From: a bacterium
Lineage (GTDB): Bacteria > Zhuqueibacterota > Zhuqueibacteria > Residuimicrobiales > Oceaniaggregativiventaceae
NCBI GenBank assembly: GCA_029565675.1
Contig: JAKQNP010000021.1
Span: 97,630 to 161,629, forward strand
DNA: 64,000 bases
Direction: 5' to 3'
The translations under genes were made by a program, and so were the position numbers. Shown here piece by piece: positions 15,292 to 35,964 of this stretch. Every line of letters begins with the position of its first letter. Position 1 is the first letter of the stretch. The notes under the pieces were generated by a model that ran no database searches, was not told the origin of the DNA, and saw only the letters and a program-made list of their open reading frames with translations.

Positions 15292-18200
15292 CTAGTGCTC
15301 GCTGGGTATGGCTGTGGAGTGGATCGGTTGACCGGTCATCTCGGAAAGATAATCGATCAAACCGAGAAAAATTTTGTGCGCCAGATTACGGCGAAAGTCG
15401 GCGGAATTGAGTTTTTCCTCATCTTCGGCATGGCTCATGAACGCCTGTTCCACCAGCACAGCCGGACAGGTGGAGAGTCTGGTGACCAGATAATTGAACG
15501 ACCCGACCACACCGAATTCAGCCAGCGGCAGTTCGAGCAGACGATCGTAGATCGCATGGGCCAGAGGCGCCCAGAACGGATTGTGGTAGTAGGTGCTGGT
15601 TCCGGAAGCGCCGAGATAACCCCTTCCGGTGCCGGCGGCGTTGGCGTGGATGCTGATCAGCAAATCGGCCTCTTCTGCCACGGCAGTATCTTGTTTTTCC
15701 TGCAATCCCATGTCCACATCATGCTGTCGGATCTGGATGACTTGAATCCCGTGTTCCCGACAGATTTTTCCCAGTTCCTGCGCGACTTCCAGATTGATGG
15801 TTTTTTCCTCGAGTCCTGACAATCCGATGGCGCCGAGATTGCTGCCGCCGTGCCCTGCTTCGATGGCCACTTTGAGCCCGGCCGGCGACAACCCTTGGCC
15901 GTTTTTGTCCAGCCTGGGTGGGTAGCGCAGGCGCAGGCGCAAAAAGCCCTCTGCAGCTTCGATCGTATAGCCCCAAATTTTATCGGTTTTGAGGTTCACA
16001 TAGATAGTGTAGGTCTCCGGATCGGATTGTTCCCAGGTGATCCGATCGACCAGGCGAAGATTTTGGCGGTGCGTCAGCCAGGTGCTCAGAGTCTGTGCTC
16101 CAAACAGGCGGACGACAAGCCGTTTTTGCTCAGGTTCGGGGAAAATCGCATAGGGAATCGGCTTTTCATATGGAATAACCACCACGTCCTCGTCTTGACC
16201 GGGTGCCGCCTGAATGGAGCGGATAAAAGTGAACGGCTTTTCGCTGCCGTTCGGCAGAGCCTCGACATTTTGCGCGGACAGAAACGCTGAAAGGCTTTTG
16301 CCCAAACGGACGCGATAGAATTTGCCGAATCGGCCGTCGCTCTGCAGGATCACACCCGGTCCATATTCCGCCAAAATTGGCCCGCCCAGACGAATCATCC
16401 CCTGATTGTAGGTCAACGCGGTTTTGGCTGCCGTTGTGCGGAGCAGCGGAAAATAATCGGCCGTCTGAATGCGCACGATGCCCGGCACAACCGCCGATAT
16501 TTCAGCCTGTTGCGCTCCGGTCGCCGCTTGCAGGTGCACAACCGCATCCATATCCGCGTTCTGCGGCAGCGCGGCGGCCGGTAATTCGATCGAGTAGCGG
16601 CTAAAGTCGGATTCATCCTGGCGCTGCAAAGGGAAAAGCTGCCCGGCAGGCCGGATTTCAAGCCAGCCGGTCTGTCCTTGCGAACCGATCAGCGAAAAGG
16701 CGATTCGGTCCTCCGGCAAGAGCACCCGGCTCAATTTGGGTTCGATCGACAGCGTGTCGATCCATAACGGCAGCGGCGGGCGTGGCGGTGCGGGCGGCAG
16801 CAAGAAAATCTGTTTTTCATACATCTCTTTTGCTGAATCGGCAAATGTGCAGCAGCCCGTCACGCGGTTTATGCCCGGCTGCAGCGTGATCTCGTGAAAA
16901 AAAATGCCGGTTTGATATTGTTTGCAGGCAATGCCGTTTATGGCTGCTTCTGCCGGAAAGCTTGCCCTGAACAGGACCGGTATGCGCTCATGTCTGACGC
17001 TGTCCCCGGGACTGTCGCGCAATTCGATAAACGGTTCCGGGCGTTCGATTTGTCCCTCTTCAGTGATGCGGTAACGAAAGGGCAGCCGCCAGCGGTAATC
17101 GCGTTTTAGCCGCAGCCTGTCGTTGCCGGAGATGAGCTGCAGCGAATCGACCGTTCCCGGCAACACCACGCCAGCCCAACCATCGGCGTCTGCGATCTGG
17201 CAAAAACCGTTTATTTGCACAATTTGACCTCGCCTGGGCGTACCATCCGCTTGCAGCCACTGCAGGACCACTGCTCGCTCGGCACGGCCGCTTCGCCGCA
17301 AGCGCAATGGGCGATAGGGAAGAGGCGCGGCACCCGGTGCAGGTTCGGTTGCGCTCCATTCGCTGGCATTGGCGTCGATTCGCAGCAATCGCCCATGGGG
17401 ATGTCCTGGCTCTTTTGCTGTCGCTCGCGACTGATCGAGTGAAGGAGAAAAGTCGGCAAGCTCGAGAAAACCGATTGCCTGGATTGTATCAGAGTATGTT
17501 TGCCGAGCCAGGTCGTCGGCCGAAAAGACCAGTGCATCGAAAAGGGTTTGCCTTTCCTGGCGGGTGTAAGAGCTTTGCAGAGAAGGAGGATTGGTTTTTG
17601 CATTTGCAGCAAAGTTCGAACCTGGCAGTTGGCCGAAAAGCATCAAATCAGGGCGAATCACCAGTGATGCTGCGATGAGATCGTGGGCGCGCGCCAAGAG
17701 ATAGTCGCCGTCCACTTTGGCAAAAGTCCGGCCTGAGCAGGCCTCATCGGTTCGAGGCTGTCGGCGGTTTAAAGCATCACCGCCTCTCCCGCTTGCCGCA
17801 TGATCGGTACAGTCGAGAAACAGCCCATCCCATTCGACAGCCTGCAGCCATTTTTTCAATTCGCTTTTGTTCCGGCTGCTGAGTTCAGGCCAATCGGCGT
17901 TGAGATGCCGGCTCGCATCGATCGGGTGTCCGCCGGCTTGACCAGGCGCGTTTGCTGCAGATGCCTGGAGGTCAAGGCCGGCAAATACCGACAGGCCGAT
18001 TCGGTGCGCCTCTTGCACAGGTTGTTGAAGGCAAGCCGACAGGTCGACGGAGGAGGCTGCCGAACAGGGCAGCTCGAGCACCAAGACGTTGAAACCGCCA
18101 CGTCCACATCGATCGATGATCTCGTACAAGCGTTGTCGGGCGAGCTCGGCTTCCTGCAGGTGCCAGTCGGGCGCGGAGATGAGCACTCCACAGACATCAG

Positions 18201-19855: not shown

Positions 19856-20327
19856 TGTCCAGGTCCTGTTTTACGGTACAAGAGTTCATTCATCGATTAA
19901 TAAGGGTTTGTTTCAGGATTACGAATATAGAATTTATCCCCTTTCGATGCAAGCAGATTCGCCCGAATCTGCTGGCTTGTTGCACAACGCGGGCTGACGG
20001 CGTCGATTTGGTTGCCTTGCTGCTGTGCGCTGTTGTCTGCTTCTGCTCCGAAAACCGCTCGAAATGCCCAGTCTGTCGATGAAGCAGACAAATTGACAGA
20101 CTGCAGTCTGCAAAGTTGACATAATGACAGTCATGCGCCAATTATAAATAAACAGCATTAGAGCATAAATAACAATAAGATAGCTAATTCATCTTCAATT
20201 TGGCACGGCGTTTGTTACAGTTGAAGGCGAAAGCATAAAGTCGAAATTGCAAAAAAAAAGAGCATACACAAGCGGTTGGCCAAACCCCGGTACACCGCAA
20301 ACAGCAACCATAAAGGAGGAATAAACC

Positions 20328-20756
20328 ATGTTACTCGTTGATCCTTTTCGCGCTTTGGAAGTAGAACGCGAGTTTGATCGCGTGCAGCGGGAAATGAACC
20401 GCTTCCTGCGTGGCACACAGCCCGCGACAGCTTATCGCTATCCTGCAGTCAACATCTGGACTCGCGATGAAGACGCTCTGGTCACTGCTGAATTGCCCGG
20501 CTATTCCATCGATGATATGGAAATTTCGGTGCACAACAAATCGCTGACCATCAGCGGCAAGCGGCGTCCTGTTAAAGAGGAAAATGTCACCGTGCACCGA
20601 AACGAGAGGAAGCCCGATGAATTTCAGCGCACCGTTTTGATGCCCTTCGCTATCGATGCGGAAAAAGTCACGGCGCGTTATGAAAAGGGTATTCTGACGA
20701 TCACATTGCCGCGCCTTGAAGCGGACAAACCCAAAAAGATTGAAATTCGCGCTTAA
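20328..20756 (+). CDS. Hsp20/alpha-crystallin small heat-shock protein (copy 1)
   Basis: ACD domain motifs (AVNIWTRDEDALVTAELPG...; ...GILTITLPR). Confidence 0.85.
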   Translation: MLLVDPFRALEVEREFDRVQREMNRFLRGTQPATAYRYPAVNIWTRDEDALVTAELPGYSIDDMEISVHNKSLTISGKRRPVKEENVTVHRNERKPDEFQRTVLMPFAIDAEKVTARYEKGILTITLPRLEADKPKKIEIRA

Positions 20757-20801
20757 TCGAGAACAACTGAATCGTTGATCAATGATTGTGAGGTGATAAT
20801 C

Positions 20802-21206
20802 ATGGCCAATAAAGAAAAAAGCTTGCAGAAACGCGAGCCTGAAACCGTGAGCACAGTGGAACGAACCCGTTCGCAAAAGGTGTTCGTTCCGCTGGTGGAC
20901 ATCCGCGAAACCGACAACGCGATTGTTTTAACCGCCGACATGCCCGGTGTGGACGAAAAGTCGGTCGATATCACTCTGGAAAAGAATGTCTTGACCATTG
21001 ACGGCCGGGTAGATATGGTGACCCCGGATGGCCATCAGCTGAGCTATATGGAATATGAAACCGGTGATTTCCAGCGCGCTTTTACCCTTTCCGACGAAAT
21101 CAACCGTGAGGGGATCGAGGCGCAGGTCAAAGATGGGGTTTTGCAGGTGACTCTGCCCAAGGCCGAGCCGGCCAAGGCGCGTCGAATCGATATCAAAGTG
21201 GGTTAA
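20802..21206 (+). CDS. Hsp20/alpha-crystallin small heat-shock protein (copy 2)
   Basis: ACD domain (VDIRETDNAIVLTADMPGV...GVLQVTLPK). The start is at MANKEK. Confidence 0.85.
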   Translation: MANKEKSLQKREPETVSTVERTRSQKVFVPLVDIRETDNAIVLTADMPGVDEKSVDITLEKNVLTIDGRVDMVTPDGHQLSYMEYETGDFQRAFTLSDEINREGIEAQVKDGVLQVTLPKAEPAKARRIDIKVG

Positions 21207-21224
21207 ATCATAAGGAGGTGCAAA

Positions 21225-21722
21225 ATGCCGATTCGCGATTTAATTCCGAGTTGGCGGAATCGCAAGCCGGTCGCTGCAGAGCGACAGGAATCAAATCCCT
21301 TTATGCGCCTGCAGGCGGAAATCAATTCGATATTCAATTCGTTCTTTGATGATTTTGCTCTGCAACCATTTCAAGGCGAGACATCAGGTTTTACCCCTTG
21401 TACCGATATTCGCGAAACAGACAAGGAATATATTGTCGAATGCGAACTGCCGGGACTGGATGAAAAGGATGTCGAAATCGATTTAAATTCCGATGTTTTG
21501 ACTCTGCACGGTGAAAAAAAAGCCTTTAATGAGGAAAAACGCGGCGAATACCACTGCATCGAGCGCATGACCGGGCGTTTTGAACGCCATCTGCCATTGC
21601 CGGCGGATGTGGATAGAGAAAAGATTACCGCTGCTTTTAATAAGGGCGTTTTGCAGATTAGGCTGCCCAAGCAGGCGGATGTGCGAAGCGCCAGCAAACG
21701 AATTCTGATTCAGAACAAATAA
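21225..21722 (+). CDS. Hsp20/alpha-crystallin small heat-shock protein (copy 3)
   Basis: ACD domain (TDIRETDKEYIVECELPG...GVLQIRLPK). RBS AAGGAGG. Confidence 0.85.
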   Translation: MPIRDLIPSWRNRKPVAAERQESNPFMRLQAEINSIFNSFFDDFALQPFQGETSGFTPCTDIRETDKEYIVECELPGLDEKDVEIDLNSDVLTLHGEKKAFNEEKRGEYHCIERMTGRFERHLPLPADVDREKITAAFNKGVLQIRLPKQADVRSASKRILIQNK

Positions 21723-21802: not shown

Positions 21803-21859
21803 TTGACAAAATACCCCGAATTGTCTACATTAAAACCTGCAAAACCTTTGATTTTGCAG
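21803..21859 (+). promoter_or_regulatory. Candidate sigma70 promoter (TTGACA-N17-TACATT) immediately followed by an 8-bp perfect inverted repeat CTGCAAAA-N7-TTTTGCAG, a putative operator of the BMC operon
   Basis: Read directly: TTGACA at 21803-21808, TACATT at 21826-21831, and the inverted repeat at 21837-21859. It lies about 210 bp upstream of the first BMC gene. Confidence 0.5.
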
Positions 21860-22069
21860 AATTCATCAACATCCCGCCTCAAGTCATGCATCATTCGAAT
21901 CGCCTGCAGGTTTGGTGCAGCGATCCCAACCGCTGACGAGACTGTTTGGATGTGATCGCCATCAGGTGCAAGATATCGCACCGGTTTTGCTGAGACTGCC
22001 AATTTGTTGTTTTGCTATGAATTCTGCTGGCAACAAGTTCGGGATTAAGATCAACCAAGGATTATAACC

Positions 22070-22387
22070 ATGGAATTGGCTAGGGTTGAGGGAACGATTG
22101 TTTCCACCATGAAATCTGAGCGGCTCAAAGGTCGCAAACTCACGCTGATCAATTTGGTCGGTCCGGATACTCAGCCGATCAATTCCTATCTCGTTGCCAT
22201 CGATCCTCTCGGGGCTGGGGTCGGCGAAATCGTCCTGGCGGTGCGGGGCAGTTCGGCGCGGCAGAGCGACGACCTTGCCACAGTTCCGACCGATACCAGC
22301 ATCGTCGCGATAGTCGATTCCGTCGAGCATTTGGGCAAAATGGTGTATCGCAAGGACCAGCCCAAAAAAACGAGGTCAGCCAGTTGA
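22070..22387 (+). CDS. BMC vertex protein (BMC-P, EutN/CcmL/PduN family), paralog 1
   Basis: MELARVEGTIVST...GRKLTLIN...VAIDPLGAGVGEIVLAVRGSSAR matches the EutN_CcmL fold. Confidence 0.85.
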   Translation: MELARVEGTIVSTMKSERLKGRKLTLINLVGPDTQPINSYLVAIDPLGAGVGEIVLAVRGSSARQSDDLATVPTDTSIVAIVDSVEHLGKMVYRKDQPKKTRSAS

Positions 22388-22650
22388 AGCTCGGACAGGT
22401 GGTCGGCACGGTATGGGCGACGGCCAAGGACCCCAAAATACGCTCGATCCGGCTCTGTCTGATGGTGCCGGTGGATGAAACGTTCCAGCCGATCAGCAAA
22501 CGGCCGCTGGTGGCTGCCGATCCGCTCAACACCCGCACCGGCGATGTGGTTTATTGGGTTGGCGGGGCGGAGGCGACCTTTGCGTTGGCCGACAGACAGA
22601 TTCCCAGCGATGTAACCATCGTCGGTCTGGTAGACCGAATCGATTTGTAG
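22384..22650 (+). CDS. BMC vertex protein (BMC-P), paralog 2
   Basis: TTG start. LGQVVGTVWAT...VAADPLNTRTGDVVYWVGGAEA. It overlaps paralog 1 by 4 bp. Confidence 0.8.
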   Translation: MKLGQVVGTVWATAKDPKIRSIRLCLMVPVDETFQPISKRPLVAADPLNTRTGDVVYWVGGAEATFALADRQIPSDVTIVGLVDRIDL

Positions 22651-22681
22651 AAACAGAACCATCTTCGATCGGCGGCTCTCT

Positions 22682-22966
22682 ATGATTCTGGCACGTGTCA
22701 TCGGCAGCTTGGTATCAACCGATAAACACAGCTGTTATGCAAACAAAAAGTTGATGTTGGTTCGCCCGATCGAACCCGGTGGTTCGTTTACCGGACCTGT
22801 TCAGGTTGCAGTGGACACGGTCAGTGCCGGAAAAGGCGATTGTGTGCTGGTCGCCAGCGAAGGACGGGCGGCGATGGAAATTCTCGGTTTTGATCGCCGC
22901 ATGCCGCTGCGCAGCGTGATTGTCGCTATTGTCGATCGCATCGATCACCCAAACGCCGCCAAATAG
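22682..22966 (+). CDS. BMC vertex protein (BMC-P), paralog 3
   Basis: MILARVIGSLVST...VAVDTVSAGKGDCVLVASEGRAAM. Confidence 0.8.
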   Translation: MILARVIGSLVSTDKHSCYANKKLMLVRPIEPGGSFTGPVQVAVDTVSAGKGDCVLVASEGRAAMEILGFDRRMPLRSVIVAIVDRIDHPNAAK

Positions 22967-22985
22967 GATACCGACAGCTGCTGAT

Positions 22986-23654
22986 ATGGATGCTTCTGAA
23001 CGCGAGAAATTGATCGAGTTAATCGTTGAACAAGTCCTGCGGCAATTGCAGCAAATCGACAGTCTGTCGATTTCTGCAGCAAGGCCAGCGGTCTCCTTGA
23101 ACAAACGATTGATCACCGAACAGGATGTAAAGGCTCTGGTTGCCGCCGGCAATCAAGAGGTGTTTATCGGCCCGCAAAGCCTGATCACACCATTGGCGCA
23201 GGATACCCTGCGCGCGCACCGAATCGTTGTGCAGCGCGGCTTGCCGCCCGGCTCCGCTCCCGCGGCCAAAGACAAGACTGTCGCGCTCTTGGCTGGCGAT
23301 GCAACGAGCGAGTTTCGCCGCGCGCTGGCGCAGATTCTTCAATCCAAGGGTTGCTGCGTGCAGCTGATCGAGGATCGTTTGCCCTCCTTTGCAGAGCGCG
23401 AGAAAAAAGTCCGCGAGCTGGCCCATCGGATTGCAGCCAACGAATTGCACAGTGCCGTGGTGTTGGATGGCAAGGTTTTTTGTCTCAATATCGCCGCCAA
23501 CCGCATCGAACGGGTGCGCGGCGCGATTTGCTGGGATGTATCGTCAACCCGATTGGCGCGCGACGGTTGCGGCGCCAATATTTTGTTCGTCAATGACCGT
23601 CTGATCGACCAAAGCACAATCGCCGAGATGGTACGCGTTTGGATACAGGATTAA
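22986..23654 (+). CDS. BMC-associated fusion protein: N-terminal amphipathic helix plus an EutQ-N-terminus-like segment, fused to an RpiB/LacA/LacB-family sugar-phosphate isomerase-like domain
   Basis: N-term EKLIELIVEQVLRQLQQ is encapsulation-peptide-like. LITEQDVKALVAAGNQEVFIGPQSLITPLAQDTL resembles the EutQ N-terminal region. The C-terminal half (LDGKVFCLNIAANRIERVRGAICWDVSSTRLARDGCGANILFVNDRLI) aligns to the RpiB motif GTGIGMSIAANKVxGIRAALC...HNDANVL. Confidence 0.55.
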   Translation: MDASEREKLIELIVEQVLRQLQQIDSLSISAARPAVSLNKRLITEQDVKALVAAGNQEVFIGPQSLITPLAQDTLRAHRIVVQRGLPPGSAPAAKDKTVALLAGDATSEFRRALAQILQSKGCCVQLIEDRLPSFAEREKKVRELAHRIAANELHSAVVLDGKVFCLNIAANRIERVRGAICWDVSSTRLARDGCGANILFVNDRLIDQSTIAEMVRVWIQD

Positions 23655-23683
23655 AAAGTCGCCGCCAGAGCTGTTGCGGATAG

Positions 23684-25027
23684 ATGGTCGGAACAGGATT
23701 GGAAATGAAGGAACTCGTCGAACAAGTGCGGGAGGCAGGAGTGGTCGGTTCCGGCGGCGCCGGATTCCCCACCCATGTCAAACTCGAAGCACAAGCAGAG
23801 TGGTATCTGGCTAACGGCGCCGAGTGCGAGCCCCTGATGCACAAGGACCGCGAGCTGATGGTCCACTTTGGCCGGGAAGTGGTCGACGGTTTGGAAAAGG
23901 CGGCTGATTGCGTTCAGGCACAAAAGACAGCGATCGGCATTAAATCCAAAAATCGCAACGCCATCGACGCAATTCAGGCGGCGATTCGCCGCGATTCCAT
24001 GCACGTGCACGAATTTGGCGACTTTTATCCGGCAGGCGACGAGTACGAACTTGTTTATGGCATCACCGGCCGACTGATTCCGCCGCAGGGTATCCCCCTG
24101 AATATCGGCGTGGTGGTCAACAACATCGAGACACTGGTCAATATTTCTCGTGCCGTTGCCGGCAAACCGGTCACCGACACGTTCATGACTCTGACCGGTC
24201 TGGTCAAGACCCCGCTCACCACCTGGTTACCGATCGGATTGTCGGTGCGTGAAGCTTTGCAGATCGCTGGTGGTCCGATGATCGATGATTTTGCGGTCAT
24301 GGAGAGCGGGCTGATGATGGGAAAATTGGTGCAGAATCTCGACCAGCCAATCACCAAGACCACCGGCGGGTTGATCGTCTTGCCGGCAGCTCACGATTTG
24401 ATCAAGCGCATCAGCCGGCCGACTGCAGCCCAGCACCGCATCGGCCATTCGGCTTGCGATCAATGCAGCTATTGCACCGAACTCTGCCCGCGCTACTTGC
24501 TCGGCTATGAGGTCAAGCCGCACCTGGTGATGCGCAGCCTTGGATTCACCCAGATGGGCAAGGAATTGTGGAATCAAAACGCTCTGCTCTGCTGTCAATG
24601 CGGCCTTTGTACTCTCTATGCCTGCCCCGAAGGGCTTTACCCGCGCGAGGCGTGTGTGCAGGGCATGAACGATTTGCGCAAGGCCGATAAGGGAAAGTGG
24701 ACTGGCAGCTGCGATATCCAGGTGCATCCGATGAAAAACTCGCGGCGGGTGCCGATTAAAATGTTGATGAACCGTCTGGGTGTCAGCCAATACGAATCGC
24801 ATGCCGAGTACCAGGAGATGCGCGTCGAGCCGGCGCGTGTGGTCATGCCGCTCAAACAGCATGTTGGTCAGGCAGCGGAACCGGTGGTCAAGGTCGGCGA
24901 AAGCGTTCGCCGCGACCAGCTGATCGCCGAGATACCAGATGGAAAACTGGGCGCCCGCGTGCACGCCAGTATCGACGGCAAGATCAGCGCGATCCAAAAT
25001 GAACGAATCACCATCGAACGAGGGTAG
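23684..25027 (+). CDS. PduS-like RnfC-family flavin/Fe-S electron-transfer protein
   Basis: GVVGSGGAGFPTHVKL (RnfC/NuoF-type NADH/FMN site) and two ferredoxin motifs (CDQCSYCTELCP; CCQCGLCTLYACP). The likely start is at MKELVEQV (23705). Confidence 0.8.
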   Translation: MVGTGLEMKELVEQVREAGVVGSGGAGFPTHVKLEAQAEWYLANGAECEPLMHKDRELMVHFGREVVDGLEKAADCVQAQKTAIGIKSKNRNAIDAIQAAIRRDSMHVHEFGDFYPAGDEYELVYGITGRLIPPQGIPLNIGVVVNNIETLVNISRAVAGKPVTDTFMTLTGLVKTPLTTWLPIGLSVREALQIAGGPMIDDFAVMESGLMMGKLVQNLDQPITKTTGGLIVLPAAHDLIKRISRPTAAQHRIGHSACDQCSYCTELCPRYLLGYEVKPHLVMRSLGFTQMGKELWNQNALLCCQCGLCTLYACPEGLYPREACVQGMNDLRKADKGKWTGSCDIQVHPMKNSRRVPIKMLMNRLGVSQYESHAEYQEMRVEPARVVMPLKQHVGQAAEPVVKVGESVRRDQLIAEIPDGKLGARVHASIDGKISAIQNERITIERG

Positions 25028-25032
25028 CGAGC

Positions 25033-25584
25033 ATGCAGATGCGCGCAGTGGGATTGATCGAATTGAACAGCATCGCTGCCGGTATCGACGTGGCGGATGC
25101 CATGCTGAAATCCGCGCAGGTGGAACTTGTGCTGGCGCGAACGATCTGCTCGGGCAAATATCTGGTGATCGTCGGCGGCGAAGTGGCGGCCGTGCGCGCC
25201 AGCGTTGATGCCGGTGCGCAGCGGTGGCCGGGCACGGTGATCGATTTGATGGTGATTCCCAATGTGCATCCTTCGATTTTTCCGGCCATCGCCGGATCCA
25301 ATACGATCGACAAACCGGGTTCTCTCGGGGTGATCGAGTCGTTCAGCGTCGGCTCGCTGATCGAGGCGGCTGACATTGCGGTCAAGACAGCGGCAATCGA
25401 AGTGATCGAAATCCGTCTGGCCATGGCTCTGGGCGGCAAGGCCTTTGTCACCCTGACCGGCGATGTCTCGGCCGTGCGAGCTGCTGTGGATGCCGGCGCC
25501 GCCCATGTGGCGCAAAAGGGTTTGCTGGTCAACAGCGTGGTGATCCCAGCCCCCAGCAAGCAGCTCTATAGAGATTATATTTAA
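25033..25584 (+). CDS. PduT-like tandem-domain BMC shell protein (BMC-T) with a conserved pore cysteine, a putative [4Fe-4S] site
   Basis: Two BMC (PF00936-like) repeats within 183 aa. It is near-collinear with Salmonella PduT (GLIELNSIAAGIDVADAMLKSA..., TICSGKY versus PduT TICPGKF). Confidence 0.85.
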   Translation: MQMRAVGLIELNSIAAGIDVADAMLKSAQVELVLARTICSGKYLVIVGGEVAAVRASVDAGAQRWPGTVIDLMVIPNVHPSIFPAIAGSNTIDKPGSLGVIESFSVGSLIEAADIAVKTAAIEVIEIRLAMALGGKAFVTLTGDVSAVRAAVDAGAAHVAQKGLLVNSVVIPAPSKQLYRDYI

Positions 25585-25660
25585 GCAGCCCGGTCTGCGA
25601 GACAGAAACGCACTCCTTTGTCGCCAGTGCGGCGAAGAGCAGTGAAGCAGGAGTATCTTC

Positions 25661-26329
25661 ATGTCCATTTCCAATGATGAACTCACCCGTAAGGTCGAAA
25701 CCATCGTCCGGCAGGTGATCGATTCGCTCTATCCTGCAACCAATGATTCGGCCATTCCTTTGGGCATTTCGGCGCGGCACCTGCACATCTGCCAGGAGGA
25801 TCTGGAAATTTTGTTCGGCAAAGGCGCGCAGTTGACCAAAATGCGCGATCTGAAACAACCGGGTGAATTCGCCGCCAACGAGACGGTCACCGTGGTCGGA
25901 CCGAACCGCAGGATGTTCGAAAAGGTGCGCATCCTCGGCCCTACCAGACCGCAGACTCAGGTCGAGATGGCCTATTCAGATGGCCGTTTCCTGGGCATCG
26001 AGTTGCCGCATCGAATTTCCGGCAACATCAAAGGCTCCGCGCCCATCACGCTGATCGGTCCGGAAGGTGTTTTGCGCCTTACAGAAGGTGCGATTCGGGC
26101 GATGCGCCACCTGCACTGCAGTCCGCAAGACGCCGCCCGTCTGGGCATCAGGGATGGGGAGGAGGTCAGTGTGCGCACCGAAGGGGAGAGCAGCGTCACC
26201 TTTAATCATGTGGTGGTGCGCATCAAGGACAAATTGAAACTCGAAATGCATGTGGATACCGACGAGGCCAATGCCGCCGGTTTGACTGCGGCCAATGCCT
26301 TTGGTTATCTGGTCAAGGAGCAAAAATAG
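25661..26329 (+). CDS. pduL: PduL-type phosphotransacylase (phosphate propanoyl/acyl-transferase)
   Basis: Two PTAC repeats (GISARHLHICQED...; CSPQDAARLGIRDGEEV). The N-terminal amphipathic helix LTRKVETIVRQVIDSL is a typical PduL encapsulation peptide. Confidence 0.85.
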   Translation: MSISNDELTRKVETIVRQVIDSLYPATNDSAIPLGISARHLHICQEDLEILFGKGAQLTKMRDLKQPGEFAANETVTVVGPNRRMFEKVRILGPTRPQTQVEMAYSDGRFLGIELPHRISGNIKGSAPITLIGPEGVLRLTEGAIRAMRHLHCSPQDAARLGIRDGEEVSVRTEGESSVTFNHVVVRIKDKLKLEMHVDTDEANAAGLTAANAFGYLVKEQK

Positions 26330-27751
26330 ATGGCAGATTTTGATCCAACCCTGGTCGCAGAAATCGTCAGGCGAGTGATAACCGAGCTGAACCACAGCAC
26401 TGGTGCAGCAGCCGGGACGACCGGGGTCACCAACGGCATATTTGCCACTGTGGATCAAGCCTTTGCCGCTGCGGAAAAGGCACAAAAGATCTGGCATGCG
26501 ATGCCGCGTGCCGATAAAGCGAAAGTCATCGCTGCCTTGCGCCAGACCATGCATGATCATGCGGAAGAATTTGCCCGCCGGGCGCAACAAGAAACCGGCA
26601 TGGGACGGGTCGAAGACAAGATCGCCAAACACCACAATGCCGCTGACGCCACACCGGGACTGGAAGACCTCGAGGTGCGTTCCTGGAGCGGTGACAAGGG
26701 TTTGGTGGTGGAAGAATACGCCCCTTATGGCGTCATCGCGGCGATCACCCCGTCGACCCATCCGATTCCGGTGCTCTTGAACAGCTCGATCATCATGATT
26801 GCGCCGGGCAACGCTGTCATTTTCAATGTTCATCCAGCGGCCAAAAATGTTTCCGCCTATGCGATGGAAATCTTTAACCGCACCATTGTCGACAACGGCG
26901 GCCCGGCCAACCTGATCTCCATGCTGCGGGAGCCGACCATGGAAGGGGCCAACGAGCTTTTCCATCATCCGCAGATCCGTCTGATCGCTGCCACCGGCGG
27001 TCCAGGCCTGGTCAAGGCGGCTTTTGCAGCCGGCAAAAAAGTGGTGGCGGCCGGACCGGGCAATCCACCGGTGGTGGTGGATGTGACTGCCGATCTCGAT
27101 CGCGCCGCCCGAGAGATAATCAAAGGCGCCTCTTTCGACAACAACATCCTTTGTATTGCGGAAAAAGAAGTGTTCGTCGTCGATGGCGTTTTCGACCGGT
27201 TTATGCAAGCCATGGCGAATGCCGGAGCGGTACGGCTGAACGCGGCGCAAATCGAAATGCTCACGGCCAAGGCGTTCGGCAAGAACGACAAGGGCCAGGT
27301 CTTTGTCAGCCGCGACTTGATCGGCAAAAACGCCAATGTCCTGGCTGCGATCGCCGGCCTGACGCTTCCCGACCAGGTGCGGATTCTGTATGGCGAAACC
27401 GACAAGAATCATCTCTTTGTGCAGGAAGAGCAAATGATGCCTTTCCTGCCCATCGTCCGCTGTCCATCAGTGGAACAGGCCATTGAATGGTCGGTGGAAG
27501 CCGAGCATGGCTTCGGTCATACGGCCATGATCTATTCCAATCATCTCGAAACCATCACCCGGTTTACCCGTGCGATCGATACCGATATCGTGGTGGTCAA
27601 TGGACCGAGTGGTGCAGGCAATGGCGGTTATTCTGGCGAAGGGTATTTTTCCCATACCATCGCCAGTCCCACGGGAGAGGGTATTTGCACGCCGCGCGAT
27701 TTCGCCCGGGTCCGCCGATTGGCGATCTATGAAAATTTACAGGTCGTCTGA
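26330..27751 (+). CDS. CoA-acylating aldehyde dehydrogenase (PduP/EutE-like) with an N-terminal encapsulation peptide
   Basis: AldDH fold with the catalytic Cys in ILCIAEKE. The N-terminus DPTLVAEIVRRVITEL is followed by a Gly/Ala/Thr-rich linker. Confidence 0.85.
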   Translation: MADFDPTLVAEIVRRVITELNHSTGAAAGTTGVTNGIFATVDQAFAAAEKAQKIWHAMPRADKAKVIAALRQTMHDHAEEFARRAQQETGMGRVEDKIAKHHNAADATPGLEDLEVRSWSGDKGLVVEEYAPYGVIAAITPSTHPIPVLLNSSIIMIAPGNAVIFNVHPAAKNVSAYAMEIFNRTIVDNGGPANLISMLREPTMEGANELFHHPQIRLIAATGGPGLVKAAFAAGKKVVAAGPGNPPVVVDVTADLDRAAREIIKGASFDNNILCIAEKEVFVVDGVFDRFMQAMANAGAVRLNAAQIEMLTAKAFGKNDKGQVFVSRDLIGKNANVLAAIAGLTLPDQVRILYGETDKNHLFVQEEQMMPFLPIVRCPSVEQAIEWSVEAEHGFGHTAMIYSNHLETITRFTRAIDTDIVVVNGPSGAGNGGYSGEGYFSHTIASPTGEGICTPRDFARVRRLAIYENLQVV

Positions 27752-27841
27752 TTGTCCGCTTGATAGGGCATTCAAACGAAAACAAGTTAAACCAAAGGAT
27801 AACCAACGGATCTTATTCCACAAATTGAGGAGAATTCAGTC

Positions 27842-28129
27842 ATGGCACAAGAAGCATTGGGCATGGTCGAAACCCGCGGTTTTATCGCGGCAATTGAAGC
27901 GGCTGATGCGATGGTCAAGGCGGCCAATGTCGAATTGGTCGGCAAGGCCCAGGTCGGGAGTGGTTTGGTTTCTATCATCGTTCGCGGCGATGTGGGTGCT
28001 GTGAAAGCAGCCACCGACGCCGGTGCAGCCGCTGCGGAAAAAGTGGGCGAGCTGGTTTCTGTCCATGTGATTCCCAGACCGCATGCCGATGTCGAAAAAT
28101 TGCTGCCTGCCAAAGGCGTCAAAGCGTAA
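27842..28129 (+). CDS. BMC-H hexamer shell protein (PduA/EutM-like)
   Basis: [31 protein letters not shown]...[17 protein letters not shown] is a canonical single BMC domain. Confidence 0.9.
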
Positions 28130-28141
28130 AGGAGTTGCGCG

Positions 28142-28924
28142 TTGCAAAAATCCCTATTTGCCTTGAAGCGCGATCTGGTCGAGGTAGGGCGACGCGTCTA
28201 CGACCATGGTTTTGTCGCGTCCAATGACGGCAACATCAGCGCCCGGGTCGATAACGACCGCGTTTTGATTACTCCGACCGGAGTGAGCAAAGGTTTTATG
28301 AAGCCGGAAGAGATGGTGCTGGTGGACATGGACGGCAAGGTTTTGTCCAACACAGGCAAACCTTCTTCTGAAGTGTTCATGCATCTGCGGATCTACAAGG
28401 ATCGCCCCGATGTCAACAGCGTCTGTCATGCCCATCCGCCTTATGCGACGGGTTATGCGGTGGCCGGTCTGGCGATGGATAAATGCGTTTTGCCCGAAGT
28501 CATCATCGTTCTCGGCGAAATCCCTCTGGTTGAATACGGTACTCCCGGCACCGAAGAGTTTTATACACCGGTGCTCAAGTATCTCAAAGATCACGACGCG
28601 TTTCTGTTGGCCAACCACGGAGCCCTGACCATCGGCAAAGACATTTACAATGCCTACTTCAAGATGGAGACCCTTGATCACGCGGCCAAAATTCAGTTCA
28701 TCGCCAAACAGCTTGGCCATCTCAACGTGCTCAAGAGCCAGGACGTGGACAAGCTGATGGAGATTCGCAAACGGGCCGGCATTGCCACCTCCTCGCCCTG
28801 TCTCAGCTGCGAGGAAGACGGTTCCTGTGACATCACCACCGCCTGGTCTGGACCGGAGAACCAACCGGACCGCGAACAGCTGGTGCGCCAGGTGACTGAA
28901 GCCGTGCTCCGCCAGTTGAAATAA
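28142..28924 (+). CDS. class II aldolase (L-fuculose/rhamnulose-1-phosphate aldolase family) with a ~45-aa C-terminal extension
   Basis: TTG start. SNDGNISARV...LITPTGV...HAHPPYATGYAV...LANHGALTIG is FucA-like, with the zinc His ligands present. The extension SSPCLSCEEDGSCDITT...REQLVRQVTEAVLRQLK ends in an amphipathic helix. Confidence 0.85.
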   Translation: MQKSLFALKRDLVEVGRRVYDHGFVASNDGNISARVDNDRVLITPTGVSKGFMKPEEMVLVDMDGKVLSNTGKPSSEVFMHLRIYKDRPDVNSVCHAHPPYATGYAVAGLAMDKCVLPEVIIVLGEIPLVEYGTPGTEEFYTPVLKYLKDHDAFLLANHGALTIGKDIYNAYFKMETLDHAAKIQFIAKQLGHLNVLKSQDVDKLMEIRKRAGIATSSPCLSCEEDGSCDITTAWSGPENQPDREQLVRQVTEAVLRQLK

Positions 28925-29070
28925 CACCACAGCCGGACAAACGAAGAGATCCGTTTCGTCCGGCTGTTTTACTGATCCCGCCCAATTGCCGTTTTGCCGC
29001 TCGAAACATCTTGACAGGCCGGCGGCGAACGCCGCATTACTTTGTCTGAAACCTTAAGAGGTTTGCTGCG

Positions 29071-30282
29071 ATGAAACGACCCTTGCACCCGCTCAGGATA
29101 ATCGTCTGCAATATCGGCTCCAGCAGTTTCAAATTCCAATTGCTCGACATGCCGGCGGAACGCCAGCTGGCGCGTGGCTACACCGAGCGCGTTGGCAGCG
29201 ACGATGCCATCATCACCTACTGGGTCGGCGATCGTCAAGTCCTGCAAACCCGAATTGCGGTGCCCAGCCATCGCCAGGCCGTTCAGCACGCCCTGACCTT
29301 TCTGACCGATCCCGAAATCGGTCTGCTCGACAATCTCGATGCCATCGACGGCATCGGATTCAAGACCATTCAGGCAGGCGACAAAAACGGCTCGGTCCTT
29401 CTGGATGACGCGGTTCTTCAGGCAATGGAGGATTACCGCGATCTGGCACCGGCCCACAATCCGCCTTATCTCACGGCTATCTATATGTTTCGCGAAATGC
29501 TGCCCAAAACACCGCTGGTGGGTGTGTTTGAACCGGGTTTTCACCTGAACATGCCCCTGCATGCCCGCGTTTACGGCACGCCCTATGAATGGATCGAAAA
29601 ATATGGGGTCAAGAAATACGGCTATCACGGTGCCTCGCACCGCTATGTCACTGCCGAAACCGTGCGCGTGCTCGGCTTACCGGCCGACAACCATCGCGTC
29701 ATCACCTGCCATCTGGGCGGGTCGTCGTCGCTTTGCGCCTACAAAAATGGCAAATCCATCGATACCTCCATGGGATTCACGCCGCAATCGGGATTGATCC
29801 AGGGCACCCGCATAGGCGACATGGATCCGTTTGTTCTGCCTTATATCATGGTGAAAAAGGGCATCACCCTGGAACAGGCGCTGGCCGAGTGTTCAAAAAG
29901 CGGCGGGCTCAAGGGTTTGTCCGGAATTTCAGCGGACATGCGCGAGATCAAGGAGGCGATCGCCCGGGGCGATGCGCGTGCCAAACTGGCTTGGGATAAG
30001 TTTATCTATGACATCAAACGCTACATTGGCGAGTATCTCGTTCTGCTCGAAGGGGTGGACGCCGTGACCTTTACCGGTGGCATCGGCGAAAACAATGCCG
30101 ATCTTCGCGAGGAGGTGCTGTCGGCACTGCGATTCCTCGGCCTTGAGTTGGACAAGGCGGCAAATGCGGCGCATGCACAATTGATCACCACCTCAAAGTC
30201 CAAAATCCGGGCGCTGGTGCTGAAAACCGATGAAGAGATCGTGGTGGCGCGCGAGACGGTTCGGGTCATGTCCGGCAGTTGA
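29071..30282 (+). CDS. ackA: acetate (acyl) kinase
   Basis: [16 protein letters not shown] (the ATP-binding N-terminus of AckA) and [10 protein letters not shown]. Confidence 0.9.
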
Positions 30283-30310
30283 GCGCCTGAACGATCAAAA
30301 CCAAGGAATA

Positions 30311-32131
30311 ATGATGATGAACAAGGAACAGGAATTCAAAAAAACGGCTTCGGTGCAACGCCTGGCAGGTACACTGCCAAAAATCGGTATCCGGCCGGTC
30401 ATCGACGGCCGTCGTCGCGGGGTGCGCGAATCGCTGGAAGATCAGACGATGGGCATGGCCAGGCGTGCCGCCGCTTTTCTCGAAAAGAATCTGCGCCATC
30501 CCAATGGTCTGCCGATTGAATGCGTGATTGCCGATACCTGCATCGGCGGTGTGGCGGAAGCGGCAGCAGCGGCAGATAAATTTGCCCGCACCGGTGTCGG
30601 CGTGTCGCTGACCGTCACTCCGTGCTGGTGCTACGGCACCGAAGTGATGGACGCCGACCCCCTGATTCCCAAGGCGGTGTGGGGATTCAATGGAACCGAG
30701 CGGCCCGGCGCTGTCTATCTGGCCGCCGCCCTGGCCGGCTATGCGCAAAAAGGGTTGCCCGCGTTCGGCATCTATGGCCGCGATGTGCAGGACGCTGGCG
30801 ACGATTCCATACCCGCCGATGTGGCGGAAAAATTGCTGCGTTTTGCCAAAGCCGCACTCGCCGTGGCGGAAATGCGCGGTAAATCCTATCTCTCCATGGG
30901 ATCGGTGTCCATGGGTATCGCCGGCTCGGTGGTGAACGACGATTTTTTTCACAGCTGGCTCGGCATGCGCAACGAGACCATCGATATGTCGGAATTCGTG
31001 CGCCGCTTTGAGGAAAAGATCTATGATCGCGAGGAATACGAGCGCGCTCTGACCTGGGTGAAAAAATATTGCCCCGAAGGGCCCGACCTCAATCCCGTTG
31101 ACCAGCAGAACTCGCGCCAACGCAAGGATTGGGAATGGGAAACCGTGGTCAAGATGACCCTCATCGCCCGCGATCTCATGGTCGGCAATCCGGTTTTGGC
31201 TGACCTCGGTTACGGCGAAGAAGCTCTGGGCCACAACGCTCTGCTCGCCGGATTCCAGGGCCAACGCCAGTGGACCGATCACTTTCCCAACGGCGATTTC
31301 ATGGAGGCGATTCTCAACTCCTCCTTTGATTGGAACGGCATACGCCAGCCCTATCTGGTGGCTACCGAAAACGACAGCCTGAACGGTACGGTCATGCTCT
31401 TTGGCCATCTGCTCACCGACACGGCGCAGGTCTTTGCCGACGTGCGCACCTATTGGAGCCCACAGGCGATCAAACGCGTCACCGGCAAAGCCGCTGCAGG
31501 CAAGGCGCAGGATGGCATCATCCATCTCATCAACTCGGGTTCAGCGGCGCTGGACGGCTGCGGCCGCCAGCAGCGCAACGGCCAACCGGCGATGAAACCC
31601 TTTTGGGATATCGAACCGCAAGAGGTCAAGGCTTGCCTCGAGGCCACCCGCTGGTGTCCGGCCAGTCTGGGCTATTTCCGCGGTGGCGGTTTTTCTTCCC
31701 AGTTCGTCACCGTCGGCGAGATGCCGGTGACCCTGTCGCGGCTCAATTTGGTCAAAGGCCTGGGCCCTGTGCTGCAGATCGCTGAAGGCTATACGGTCGA
31801 ATTGCCCGACGATATGCATCAGATTCTCAATCAGCGCACCGATCCCACCTGGCCCACCACCTGGTTTGCGCCGATTCTCACCGGAACCGGAGCGTTTTGC
31901 GACGTTTATTCTGTCATGGCCAACTGGGGCGCCAACCACGGTTCCCTCGGCTATGGCCATTTCGGCGACCGCCTGATTACCCTGGCCAGCCTGCTGCGCA
32001 TTCCCGTGTGTATGCACAACGTTGCCGAAGAACGGATCTATCGGCCGCATGCGTGGAGTGCCTTTGGCACCCAGGACCTGCAAGGTGCCGACTATCGCGC
32101 CTGTCAGGCCTATGGGCCGCTTTATGGTTGA
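30311..32131 (+). CDS. fucI: L-fucose isomerase
   Basis: Near-collinear with E. coli FucI ([24 protein letters not shown]..., [45 protein letters not shown]). The start is at the MMMNKEQ cluster (30311-30319). Confidence 0.9.
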
Positions 32132-32162
32132 GTGCAGAACACAACAGAACAATGGGAAAAAA

Positions 32163-33647
32163 ATGGCCGGAGTTAATTATCTCGCCTTTGATTTTGGCGC
32201 CACCAGCGGACGCACGATTCTGGGCACCCTTGGCGATAAACTTGAATTGCGCGAACTAACCCGCTTTCCCAATCGGCAGATCCGCGCCCTGGGAACAACC
32301 TATTGGGATTTTCTCGATCTCTTCGAGCAGATCAAGCAGGGCCTGGTCTGTGCCGCTGGTGAGGGCCGGGCGATCCGCGGCATCGCAGTCGATACCTGGG
32401 GCGTGGATTTCGGCCTGCTGGCAAGCGATGGAAGCCTGCTCGGCAACCCGGTTTCCTATCGCGATCCGCGCACCGATGGCATGATGGAAAAGGTTTTTGC
32501 CCGTATTGCGCGCGACCGGATCTATCGCCTGACCGGCATCCAATTCATGCAACTCAACACTCTCTATCAGCTTTTTGCGCTGGCGCAAAGCCGCTCGCCG
32601 CAACTCGAGGCGGCCGAGACGCTGCTGTTTATGCCAGACCTGTTCAACTATTTTCTCACCGGCGAAAAGCGCACCGAGTACACCATCGCATCCACTTCCC
32701 AGCTGCTGAATGCGCAAAAGCGCAGCTGGGAAAGAGAAATTCTGACCGCGCTCGATGTGCCGCACTCGATCCTCACACCCATCGTGCGGCCGGGAACCGT
32801 GGTCGGGCCGCTGCTGGACGATCTCGCCAAAGAGACCGGTCTGGGCAGAGTGGAGGTCATCGCCGGCGCCGCTCATGATACCGCCGCAGCGGTGGCCGCC
32901 ACGCCGATGCAATCGCCCGGTGCCGCCTATCTCAGCTCCGGCACCTGGTCGCTCCTCGGCGTCGAAGCCGCCGAACCAGTGATCACCGTTGAGTCCCTGC
33001 ATCGCAATTTCACCAACGAAGGCGGAGTCAACGGCACCGTTCGATTTCTCCGCAATGCCATGGGTATGTGGCTGCTGGAAGGGTGCAAGAGCAGCTGGGA
33101 ACGGCAGGGCGGAAAATATTCCTATCCCGAACTGGTGGCTCTGGCCGAAAAAGCCGAACCGTTTCGCAGCATCGTCGACCCGGATGCGGATCTCTTTATC
33201 CATCCGGAGGAGATGCCGGCGGCGATCGATGAGTTCTGCCGCCGTACCGGTCAGCCGGTACCGGACAGCATCGGCGCCTTTGTGCGCTGTGTGTTCGAGA
33301 GCCTTGCCCTGAAATACCGCTTTATCGTCGAGGGAATCGAGGCCATGCGGCCAATACCCATCGATGTCCTGCACATCGTCGGCGGTGGTTCGCAGAATGA
33401 ATTGCTCAACCGCTTTACCGCCGATGCTCTGGGCATTCCGGTGGTTGCCGGACCTATCGAAGCCACAGCCATCGGCAACATCATGGTGCAGGCTGTGGCC
33501 ACCGGCCAGCTCGCCTCGATCGCCGAAGGCCGGGAGCTGGTGGCACGATCGTTCCCTATGAAGACGGTAGAATCCCGCGACACCGCGCAGTGGGAAGAGC
33601 AGTACCAGCGCATCCGTCCGATGTTTGTGCAGGGATTGGAGGGATAA
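32163..33647 (+). CDS. rhaB: rhamnulokinase-like FGGY-family sugar kinase
   Basis: LAFDFGATSGR, IAVDTWGVDFGLL, VSYRDPRTDG, GIQFMQLNTLYQLFAL, YLSSGTWSLLG and HIVGGGSQN follow E. coli RhaB closely. The start is at MAGVNYL. Confidence 0.85.
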   Translation: MAGVNYLAFDFGATSGRTILGTLGDKLELRELTRFPNRQIRALGTTYWDFLDLFEQIKQGLVCAAGEGRAIRGIAVDTWGVDFGLLASDGSLLGNPVSYRDPRTDGMMEKVFARIARDRIYRLTGIQFMQLNTLYQLFALAQSRSPQLEAAETLLFMPDLFNYFLTGEKRTEYTIASTSQLLNAQKRSWEREILTALDVPHSILTPIVRPGTVVGPLLDDLAKETGLGRVEVIAGAAHDTAAAVAATPMQSPGAAYLSSGTWSLLGVEAAEPVITVESLHRNFTNEGGVNGTVRFLRNAMGMWLLEGCKSSWERQGGKYSYPELVALAEKAEPFRSIVDPDADLFIHPEEMPAAIDEFCRRTGQPVPDSIGAFVRCVFESLALKYRFIVEGIEAMRPIPIDVLHIVGGGSQNELLNRFTADALGIPVVAGPIEATAIGNIMVQAVATGQLASIAEGRELVARSFPMKTVESRDTAQWEEQYQRIRPMFVQGLEG

Positions 33648-34556: not shown

Positions 34557-35855
34557 ATGGATGTGTTGATGGAAGAAACCAACTTGCCCAGAGATGAGCT
34601 GCATCGGCTCAAAATTGCGGTCGAAGAGCTCAGCATCCTCAACGATCTGGCGGTCGCCGCCGGCAGCACACTGGAAGAGGAAAAAATGCTCGACATCATC
34701 GTGCACAAGAGCATCAAGGCTTTGCATGCCGAGCAGGGCGCCATCCAACTGATCACCGAACAGGCCGACTCTCCCCTCAGGACTCTGATACGGGAGTTGG
34801 ATTCGAGCAGCCGAATTTTAGACTATAAAGTGGGCATCAACATCACCGGCTGGGTGCTCAAATACCAAAAGCCGTTGGTCATTGCCGATCTCGCGACCGA
34901 CACCCGTTTTCTGACGACAGAACAGGAGCGTTCAGAAATCCATTCGCTTCTCTGCGTGCCCATCCGCCATCGCGACCAGCTTTTAGGAGTGCTGATGGTG
35001 GTCAACCGCAAGGGCAGTGAGGCTTTTAGCGAAGATGACCAGCGTTTGCTCTCGATCATCGCTTCTCAATCCGGTCAACTCATCCACAATATGAAATTGC
35101 AGCAATCGGAGCTGGAAGAACGGCGACTCAAACAAGAATTGGAGTTGGCGCACAAGATCCAGCAAAAGCTCTTGCCAAAAGAAGATCCGACCTGCAGATT
35201 GTTTGAAGTCGCCGCTTGTTATGAACCGGCCGAAGCCGTAGCGGGTGACTATTACGATTATTTTTACCGCGATGAACAATTGAGTGGAATTGTCATTGCG
35301 GATGTCTCCGGGCATGGCACTTCGGCGGCGATGGTGATGACTCTGGTCAAGGGTATTCTCTGTTCTGTGACACAAAAAAATCAGTCGCCCGCCCAAATCC
35401 TTACAGAAGTCAATGCAATTCTTTGCAAAATACTGCCCCGTCAGATGTTCGTCACCATGATCTTCATACAGCTCGATCCCAGCCATAAACGTTTGCGTTT
35501 TGCCAGCGCCGGCCATACGCCGTTGGTTTTCTATCAAAACCAGAGCAATTCTTGCCAGATGATGGAATGCCGAGCGACGGCTCTGGGCCTCAAATCCGAG
35601 GTTCAATATGAAGAAAAAGAGCTGGCTGTTGCGTCGGGTGATTTCATCTTCGCTTATACCGATGGCGTAACAGAGGCGGCTGACGCAGAACACCAGCTGT
35701 TCGGTGAAGAAAGGCTTATTCACTCGGTGTGCGCCTCCTGTGCCGAAAGCGCATCGGATATCATTTGTCGTGTGCGCCAGGATGTGCGTGATTTCCTCGG
35801 CCATACCTTGCATGAAGATGATATCGCCATGATCGGCATCAAAATAAAACCTTGA
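34557..35855 (+). CDS. GAF-domain PP2C-type (SpoIIE/RsbU-like) serine/threonine phosphatase
   Basis: GAF region (INITGWVLKYQKPLVIADL...), then PP2C motifs (VAGDYYDYF, IADVSGHG, ASAGH, TDGVTEA). Confidence 0.75.
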   Translation: MDVLMEETNLPRDELHRLKIAVEELSILNDLAVAAGSTLEEEKMLDIIVHKSIKALHAEQGAIQLITEQADSPLRTLIRELDSSSRILDYKVGINITGWVLKYQKPLVIADLATDTRFLTTEQERSEIHSLLCVPIRHRDQLLGVLMVVNRKGSEAFSEDDQRLLSIIASQSGQLIHNMKLQQSELEERRLKQELELAHKIQQKLLPKEDPTCRLFEVAACYEPAEAVAGDYYDYFYRDEQLSGIVIADVSGHGTSAAMVMTLVKGILCSVTQKNQSPAQILTEVNAILCKILPRQMFVTMIFIQLDPSHKRLRFASAGHTPLVFYQNQSNSCQMMECRATALGLKSEVQYEEKELAVASGDFIFAYTDGVTEAADAEHQLFGEERLIHSVCASCAESASDIICRVRQDVRDFLGHTLHEDDIAMIGIKIKP

Positions 35856-35964
35856 CCACCAAAGCCAGTCAGAAATCCCGCACAAAGGATCGGAACCGAT
35901 TGATTCTCCATGGATAAGAAAATAAGGGTTGCGAAAGTTGCCTTTTTAATCCAGGGAAAACAGA

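Follow-up and report, generated by a model that had tools for sequence, protein, structure and literature searches.

A compact microcompartment operon with three pentamer genes and one hexamer gene, probably of the MIC4 type, in anaerobic-digester metagenomes

A compact run of 13 genes encoding shell proteins and enzymes of a bacterial microcompartment (BMC) was identified on the + strand at 22070–33647 of a 64,000-nucleotide stretch of a metagenome contig (hereafter, the window). The spacers between the genes are mostly 0–31 nt in length, with a range of −4 to 146 nt. Five of the genes encode shell proteins, namely three of the pentamer type (BMC-P; P1, P2, and P3) and one each of the hexamer (BMC-H) and trimer (BMC-T) types, and the run is likely to be one operon for a MIC4-class metabolosome that processes lactaldehyde (L-fucose/L-rhamnose) and is related to the PVM organelle. 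The genes, ordered and named according to their Pfam and NCBIfam matches, are listed below (EP, encapsulation peptide).

22070–22387, + strand: BMC-P P1, 105 aa; PF03319 (EutN_CcmL), 93.8 bits; canonical vertex-pentamer type
22384–22650, + strand: BMC-P P2, 88 aa, TTG start; PF03319, 77.2 bits; divergent, putatively of a ‘special’ lineage
22682–22966, + strand: BMC-P P3, 94 aa; PF03319, 79.5 bits; divergent, putatively of the second ‘special’ lineage
22986–23654, + strand: RpiB/LacAB-like protein, 222 aa; PF02502, 48.5 bits; EP-like N-terminal helix
23684–25027 (alternative start, 23705), + strand: PduS/RnfC-like flavin and Fe-S oxidoreductase, 447 aa; PF01512, PF13534, and PF13375; TIGR01945 (rnfC), 248 bits
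25033–25584, + strand: PduT-type tandem BMC-T with pore Cys39, 183 aa; two PF00936 domains, 158.8 bits
25661–26329, + strand: PduL-type phosphotransacylase (PTAC); PF06130, 238.7 bits; EP-like helix at residues 7–21
26330–27751, + strand: CoA-acylating aldehyde dehydrogenase (AldDh), 473 aa; PF00171; NF011927, 584 bits; EP-like helix at residues 9–23
27842–28129, + strand: BMC-H, 95 aa, the sole hexamer gene, PduA-like; PF00936, 101 bits; PduA structure 3ngk in the PDB, 135 bits
28142–28924, + strand: class II aldolase (fuculose/rhamnulose-1-phosphate type), the signature enzyme; PF00596, 183.7 bits; C-terminal EP-like helix at residues 246–260
29071–30282, + strand: acetate/propionate kinase (Ack); PF00871, 381 bits
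30314–32131 (start taken from the metagenome gene calls), + strand: L-fucose isomerase, 605 aa; PF07881, PF07882, and PF02952
32163–33647, + strand: FGGY kinase, rhamnulokinase-like, 494 aa; PF00370 and PF02782; TIGR02627 (rhamnulokinase), 509 bits (cut-off, 528)

An initial annotation of this DNA had described three tandem, divergent EutN-family genes at 22070–22966 and a single 95-aa BMC-H, and both descriptions were borne out. P1, P2, and P3 all cover positions 1–83 of the 83-position PF03319 profile (cut-off, 25 bits), and the open reading frame (ORF) at 27842–28129 is the only hexamer-type PF00936 ORF in approximately 80 kb of contiguous sequence. A tblastn search of the whole window with the five shell proteins returned no further copy, and when every window ORF of 45 aa or more was searched iteratively with BMC and EutN hidden Markov model (HMM) profiles, for which the window and 165 loci supplied 166 sequences, only the five known shell genes were detected. 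On the same 171-kb metagenome contig, the record positions 91.9–171.3 kb, which add approximately 6 kb in front of the window and 9 kb behind it (the stretch outside the metagenome gene calls being covered by a separate Pfam run), contain no other PF00936 or PF03319 gene. The inventory of the approximately 80 kb is thus three BMC-P, a single BMC-H, and a single BMC-T, and the additional BMC-H genes just outside the window, which the initial annotation had named alongside satellite loci as contrary evidence, are not found within these flanks. The operon is also present on contigs from several anaerobic-digester metagenomes, with proteins that are 98–100% identical, and at least five metagenome-assembled genomes (MAGs) in NCBI contain these proteins. 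The corresponding protein series are HOX86699–HOX86709, HPG46101–HPG46111, HPM98268–HPM98271, HNR68855–HNR68865 (on a 446-kb contig), and HNT66617–HNT66627, and the digester data sets include JGI 3300009780–3300009783.

A scan of metagenome contigs based on AldDh yielded 80 related loci, in which shell genes and enzymes were mapped with HMM profiles. All 10 complete operons whose AldDh is at least 60% identical to that of the window contain three BMC-P genes and one BMC-H gene, with BMC-T present in five and absent from five. Among the loci with a 43–50% identical AldDh on contigs of at least 14 kb (n = 15), 11 contain three BMC-P and three BMC-H genes (six with and five without BMC-T), and shell genes are absent from the remaining four. 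The genome loci of at least 18 kb that carry the nearest BMC-H homologs among the matches listed (n = 41, mostly from Firmicutes) mostly have one BMC-P, three to five BMC-H, and one BMC-T. The view of the initial annotation that three pentamer genes with one hexamer gene are unusual is therefore correct in that this set departs from the commonest design, but the same set is the norm in the family to which the locus belongs.

The two groups of related loci also differ in gene order. The group with at least 60% identity shares the order P-P-P-[RpiB-like]-[PduS-T]-PduL-AldDh-H-aldolase-Ack, whereas the group with 43–50% identity has the order PduL-H-H-Ack-H-P-AldDh-P-P-aldolase, which is near the PVM order. 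[quoted passage not shown] Three BMC-P genes to one BMC-H gene is the conserved norm of this locus family, and BMC-T, together with PduS, is an optional add-on and not a core tile.

This inventory would be misleading if further BMC-H or other shell genes resided in satellite loci and the real shell contained several hexamer paralogs, which is the case for most BMCs. BMC systems often have satellite loci, and several observations weigh on that side: satellite shell genes are present in some MIC4 and ACI genomes, one Ignavibacteriae MIC4 genome has its BMC-T in a satellite locus, the BMC-P genes of Melioribacter roseus are spread over five loci, and our census covers approximately 80 kb of the genome. 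An incomplete inventory nevertheless appears unlikely, given that no further shell gene occurs in these 80 kb and that exactly one BMC-H is present in each of the 10 related complete operons. A second BMC-H is absent within 10 kb on both sides in four of the five long relatives (L099, L104, L105, and L108), and the same holds for the fifth, L107, over 10 kb on its upstream side and 6.6 kb on its downstream side. Systems with a single BMC-H are also able to assemble, Haliangium ochraceum having one BMC-H genome-wide and the RMM1 and ACI main loci having one each.

Within the window, the pairwise identity of P1, P2, and P3, which the initial annotation had singled out for checking, is 30–37%. 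Orthologs of all three are present in every close relative in the same order, with identities of 46–69% (46–66% for P2 and 50–68% for P3 in the related loci). In the orthogroup alignment, the mean identity is 58–65% within the paralog groups and 30–38% between them, and each group has an invariant signature of its own. That of the P1 group, GAGxGE...GSSARQ...VPTD, consists of the canonical motifs. The P2 group has lost the GAG and GSSAR motifs and is characterized by GKVWAT...GDLVxWVxGxEAT...IPSD, and the P3 group is characterized by KHxxY...VLVASEGRAA...RxPxRS, in which RxPxR replaces VPTD and one residue is inserted. Among PDB entries, P1 matches 5v74, a shell pentamer of H. ochraceum, best (69.9 bits), whereas the best match to any solved BMC-P structure scores 39 bits for P2 and 42.8 bits for P3.

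When BMC-P proteins from other loci were compared with the orthogroup profiles, 56 of 59 from single-pentamer loci matched P1 best, and the pentamers of distant triplet loci were sorted into the P1, P2, and P3 types in numbers of 27, 24, and 27, respectively. The distant loci with a PVM-like order likewise hold one gene of each type. Because P1 matches the pentamers of single-pentamer types and the distant triplets split into the same three types, the triplication is, on these sequence comparisons, ancient and common to several BMC types. The idea that the genes arose by recent tandem duplication in place, with copies that are redundant or decaying, was considered and rejected; the sole point in its favour is that the three genes are adjacent and similar in length, and the 30–37% identity, the orthologs retained in the same order, the intact reading frames, and the strong Pfam scores leave it virtually no probability.

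According to Sutter et al. 2021 (PMC8217296), the BMC-P triplet combines a member of a canonical clade with members of two ‘special’ clades, one grey and one orange, which always co-occur. Three distinct paralog lineages, as defined by our own orthogroup profiles, are present in the window locus, and P2 and P3 appear to represent the two ‘special’ lineages of the published triplet, a correspondence drawn from the orthogroups. P1 is of the canonical type and would occupy the vertices.

For P2 and P3, alternative or mixed vertex caps are in our view the most likely role. It is possible, although doubtful, that they are not ordinary vertex caps and instead function in the nucleation of cargo or shell, in mixed pentamers that tune the vertices, or in a non-pentameric assembly; such non-vertex roles would account for the retention of three BMC-P genes for 12 vertices. 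Their own invariant signatures with loss of the canonical motifs, the conservation of both lineages across distant BMC types, and the lack of a close relative of either among solved structures are in line with this possibility. However, both proteins are full-length PF03319 members (77–80 bits against the cut-off of 25) without extra domains, and their genes are packed against or overlap P1 in the window and its relatives, which fits co-assembly of pentamers. The start of P2 overlaps the stop of P1 by 4 nt, and 4-nt overlaps also join pentamer genes in two relatives (L099 and L107); this tight packing is compatible with co-expression. The more specific proposal that P2 and P3 form mixed or specialized assemblies for shell nucleation, cargo attachment, or vertex gating is slightly less probable again, but the locus family would in that case provide the simplest natural test system. 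Our literature searches found no functional study of the triplet paralogs (PvmK/PvmM and Hoch_4425/4426).

The single BMC-H contains K26, a G-S40-G pore motif, and R79 within the sequence PRPH, and these are kept throughout the family except in one frameshifted copy (L086). In PduA, K26 and R79 form edge contacts and S40 lines the pore. BMC-H is a ‘basal’ hexamer with a standard interface. Its gene, which follows a 90-nt gap, has the strongest Shine-Dalgarno match of the operon (GAGGAG), whereas the pentamer genes have weak sites or none, with no recognizable ribosome-binding site for P3. The strength of this match gives a slight hint that the hexamer protein could be abundant despite being encoded by one gene. 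A lone BMC-H gene, whose product is 71–73% identical to that of the window, was also found adjoining PduL on chromosomes of Candidatus Poribacteria (L049, L050, L051, and L064); BMC-P is absent within 10 kb of these genes, and they may be satellite-type loci.

The excess of pentamer genes could alternatively be taken as a sign that the shells are of low T number and unusually small. The recombinant shell produced from the H. ochraceum set (one BMC-H, three BMC-T, and three BMC-P genes) is indeed small, approximately 40 nm in size, and the proteins form stable and homogeneous particles. Simple natural shell sets of this kind are listed in a 2024 review, where they are discussed as natural minimal shells. 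Stoichiometry, however, is not fixed by gene copy number, the ribosome-binding sites favour BMC-H over P3 as described above, and the predicted cargo amounts to at least four enzymes, so that small shells are a very unlikely explanation of the 3:1 ratio.

The initial annotation had further listed a single Fe-S BMC-T. One tandem BMC-T with a pore Cys is indeed present, and the Fe-S part of the description is a prediction. Over its full length, this protein matches 3nwg (178.9 bits), with the PduT structures 3n79 (156 bits) and 3pac ranking next in the PDB, and it scores 122 bits against TIGR02526 (eut_PduT), below the curated equivalog cut-off of 250. It was classified as PduT-type based on the tandem PF00936 domains in approximately 180 aa and the pore Cys in combination with an adjacent PduS partner, the BMC-T gene being located directly 3′ of the PduS/RnfC-like gene. 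Binding of an Fe-S cluster by Cys39 is predicted because this residue, in the sequence TICSGKY, aligns with the Cys of 3nwg, is kept in 8 of 8 family members, and is accompanied by the adjoining PduS-like gene. In PduT, a conserved pore Cys (Cys38) ligates a 4Fe-4S cluster.

In terms of the genes it contains, the locus agrees with MIC4, a type of which 15 loci have been described from Ignavibacteriae, KSB1, Calditrichaeota, Bacteroidetes, Actinobacteria, and Firmicutes (Sutter et al. 2021, Nat Commun 12:3809, Supplementary Data 2, PMC8217296). MIC4 loci contain an AldDh that bears an EP at its N-terminus, a PTAC, a PF00596 aldolase, an acetate kinase (PF00871), the BMC-P triplet, and PduS together with a BMC-T of the PduT type that has a pore Cys; their BMC-H set is variable, and some members have a single standard BMC-H (Sutter et al. 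2021). Every one of the listed content features was found in the window, where the enzyme core is contiguous, and the window locus adds a fucose isomerase and a rhamnulokinase-like kinase to the operon. On the published tree of BMC AldDh proteins, that of MIC4 groups with those of MUF2 and MUF3, and the shell proteins are assigned to colour clades such as H_fuchsia. Two points count against the assignment: its basis is gene content, and the RpiB-like gene of the window, with its candidate EP, does not appear in the published description of MIC4. In addition, PduS and PduT, which belong to that description, are missing from half of the close relatives of the window locus.

The PVM loci are related to that of the window and also have a documented BMC-P triplet, in which respect the initial annotation, which regarded the triplet as a PVM hallmark, was partly right. 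Erbilgin et al. 2014 reportedly give the PVM gene order as PTAC-H-H-Ack-P-AldDh-P-P-aldolase. PVM loci have two BMC-H genes and no PduS/PduT, in contrast to the one BMC-H, the PduS/PduT pair, and the different order in the window. The loci with a PVM-like order in our scan have AldDh proteins that are merely 43–50% identical to that of the window. PVM hosts are restricted to Planctomycetes and Verrucomicrobia, e.g. Planctomyces limnophilus (Sutter et al. [quoted passage not shown] PVM proper was therefore ruled out as the locus type by hexamer number, PduS/PduT, gene order, and host phyla, and the PVM link suggested initially does not hold: gene order, the single BMC-H, and the PduS/PduT pair match the description of MIC4. 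Nor is the triplet specific to PVM, having been reported in PVM, ACI, HO, SPU, several MIC and MUF types, and FRAG, and BMC-P occurs ‘most commonly singly or as three paralogs’ (Sutter et al. 2021, PMC8217296).

Two other types resemble the window locus in part. The main locus of ACI, found in Acidobacteria (Sutter et al. 2021), has one standard BMC-H, an adjacent BMC-P triplet, and a PF00596 aldolase with a C-terminal EP, but its AldDh is encoded in a satellite locus, it includes a hydroxyacid dehydrogenase, and it lacks the PTAC/Ack/PduS/PduT block. The closest genome-derived relative among the matches listed is an Acidobacteriota MAG fragment (L061), whose AldDh is 62% identical. [quoted passage not shown] The set of one BMC-H, three BMC-T, and three BMC-P genes in H. 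ochraceum, as well as the higher number of BMC-P than BMC-H genes in PVM loci, was noted earlier (Axen 2014). The locus type, the BMC-P triplet, and pentamer-rich inventories have thus all been catalogued already, and the inventory of the window is typical for its family.

As regards cargo, the C-terminal helix of the aldolase and the N-terminal helices of AldDh, PduL, and the RpiB-like protein are each the most amphipathic 15-mer of the respective protein (moment, 2.06–2.30), and no comparable terminal helix was found in the fucose isomerase, FGGY kinase, acetate kinase, or PduS. EPs are amphipathic helices of approximately 15–20 aa at a protein terminus, set apart from the catalytic domain; these four helices are candidate EPs, and the four proteins are probably encapsulated. 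In the RpiB-like protein, residues 18–82 (the middle domain) match the C-terminus of TIGR02536 (‘eut_hyp’), and the catalytic Cys, Thr, and His of Thermotoga maritima RpiB (1o1x) are replaced by Asp, Lys, and Gly in the RpiB-like domain; the protein is probably a non-catalytic cargo or scaffold component. Orthologs of it are present in three of the related loci (L094, L108, and L150), and in another (L099, 6683–7015) the middle domain stands alone.

In the pathway that we propose, which is modelled on one reported for the PVM organelle, the fucose isomerase and FGGY kinase would isomerize and phosphorylate fucose or rhamnose in the cytosol, and the encapsulated class II aldolase would then generate dihydroxyacetone phosphate and lactaldehyde. 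AldDh would turn lactaldehyde into lactyl-CoA, from which PduL and the acetate kinase would yield lactate and ATP. The PduA-like BMC-H would tile the facets of the shell and P1 would cap its vertices, with the PduT-like trimer as an optional accessory tile that arrives together with PduS. One relative (L108) is surrounded by genes for FucU, LutABC-like proteins, a Zn-dependent alcohol dehydrogenase, and an aldo/keto reductase, which supports the assignment to fucose/rhamnose metabolism.

For PduS/PduT systems, the idea is that electrons are exported through the pore, and the Fe-S cluster predicted in the BMC-T pore probably conducts electrons in this way, which would regenerate NAD+ without an alcohol dehydrogenase. 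This route appears to be the most plausible one, albeit uncertain, and is favoured because no Fe- or Zn-dependent alcohol dehydrogenase was found among the Pfam-annotated genes of the 80-kb region; outside the operon, the nearest oxidoreductase genes code for a GFO/IDH/MocA protein and for an aldo/keto reductase. The EUT2B and EUT2D types likewise have a PduS/PduT pair and no alcohol dehydrogenase in the catalog of Sutter et al. 2021. The relatives that lack PduS and PduT argue against a wider role of this route: they too have no alcohol dehydrogenase near the operon (including L097, L100, L105, and L107), and the proposed recycling of NAD+ is therefore not general in the family.

Upstream of P1, the following candidate control region was identified.

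21803–21860, + strand: candidate promoter/operator of the operon, comprising a promoter-like TTGACA-17-TACATT (21803–21831) followed by a palindrome (21836–21860)

The palindrome, CTGCAAAA-N9-TTTTGCAG, is perfect and located directly 3′ of the sigma-70-like promoter match, and an untranslated leader of approximately 210 nt separates it from P1. The promoter matches the consensus at 10 of 12 positions in a scan in which the site count was not above that in shuffled sequence. A role as promoter and operator is possible, as suggested by the position upstream of the first gene alone. No regulator gene is present inside the operon, and the whole window contains no Rfam match and no tRNA gene.

The operon is directly preceded by three tandem genes for Hsp20 small heat-shock proteins (20328–21722), at the end of which there is a hairpin-like sequence. 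No Hsp20 gene adjoins any related locus; a functional link between Hsp20 and the BMC was thus rejected, and the adjacency looks organism-specific. Directly downstream, at 34557–38368, are genes for a GAF-SpoIIE (PP2C) phosphatase, a Ser/Thr protein kinase, and a large TPR protein, which are kept on all metagenome copies of this contig and may have a regulatory connection with the BMC operon. C-terminal sorting domains of the T9SS (Por_Secre_tail) are encoded in the window at 46644–48029 and, in the locus L169, at 15665–17767 and 19914–21284, and a TonB-dependent receptor with a CarboxypepD_reg domain is encoded in the window at 60783–63101. Because of these sorting domains and this receptor, the host is probably an uncultivated anaerobic-digester bacterium of the FCB group.

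The locus carries little weight as a discovery in itself, but it adds a putative fucose/rhamnose microcompartment to a digester bacterium, probably one of the FCB group. The retention of three ancient pentamer paralogs for 12 vertices by many metabolosomes is a recognized question in the literature. The modest value of the locus family lies in its very small shell set, in which three pentamers are combined with a PduA-like hexamer and optionally with a PduT tile, and which could be used for reconstitution.

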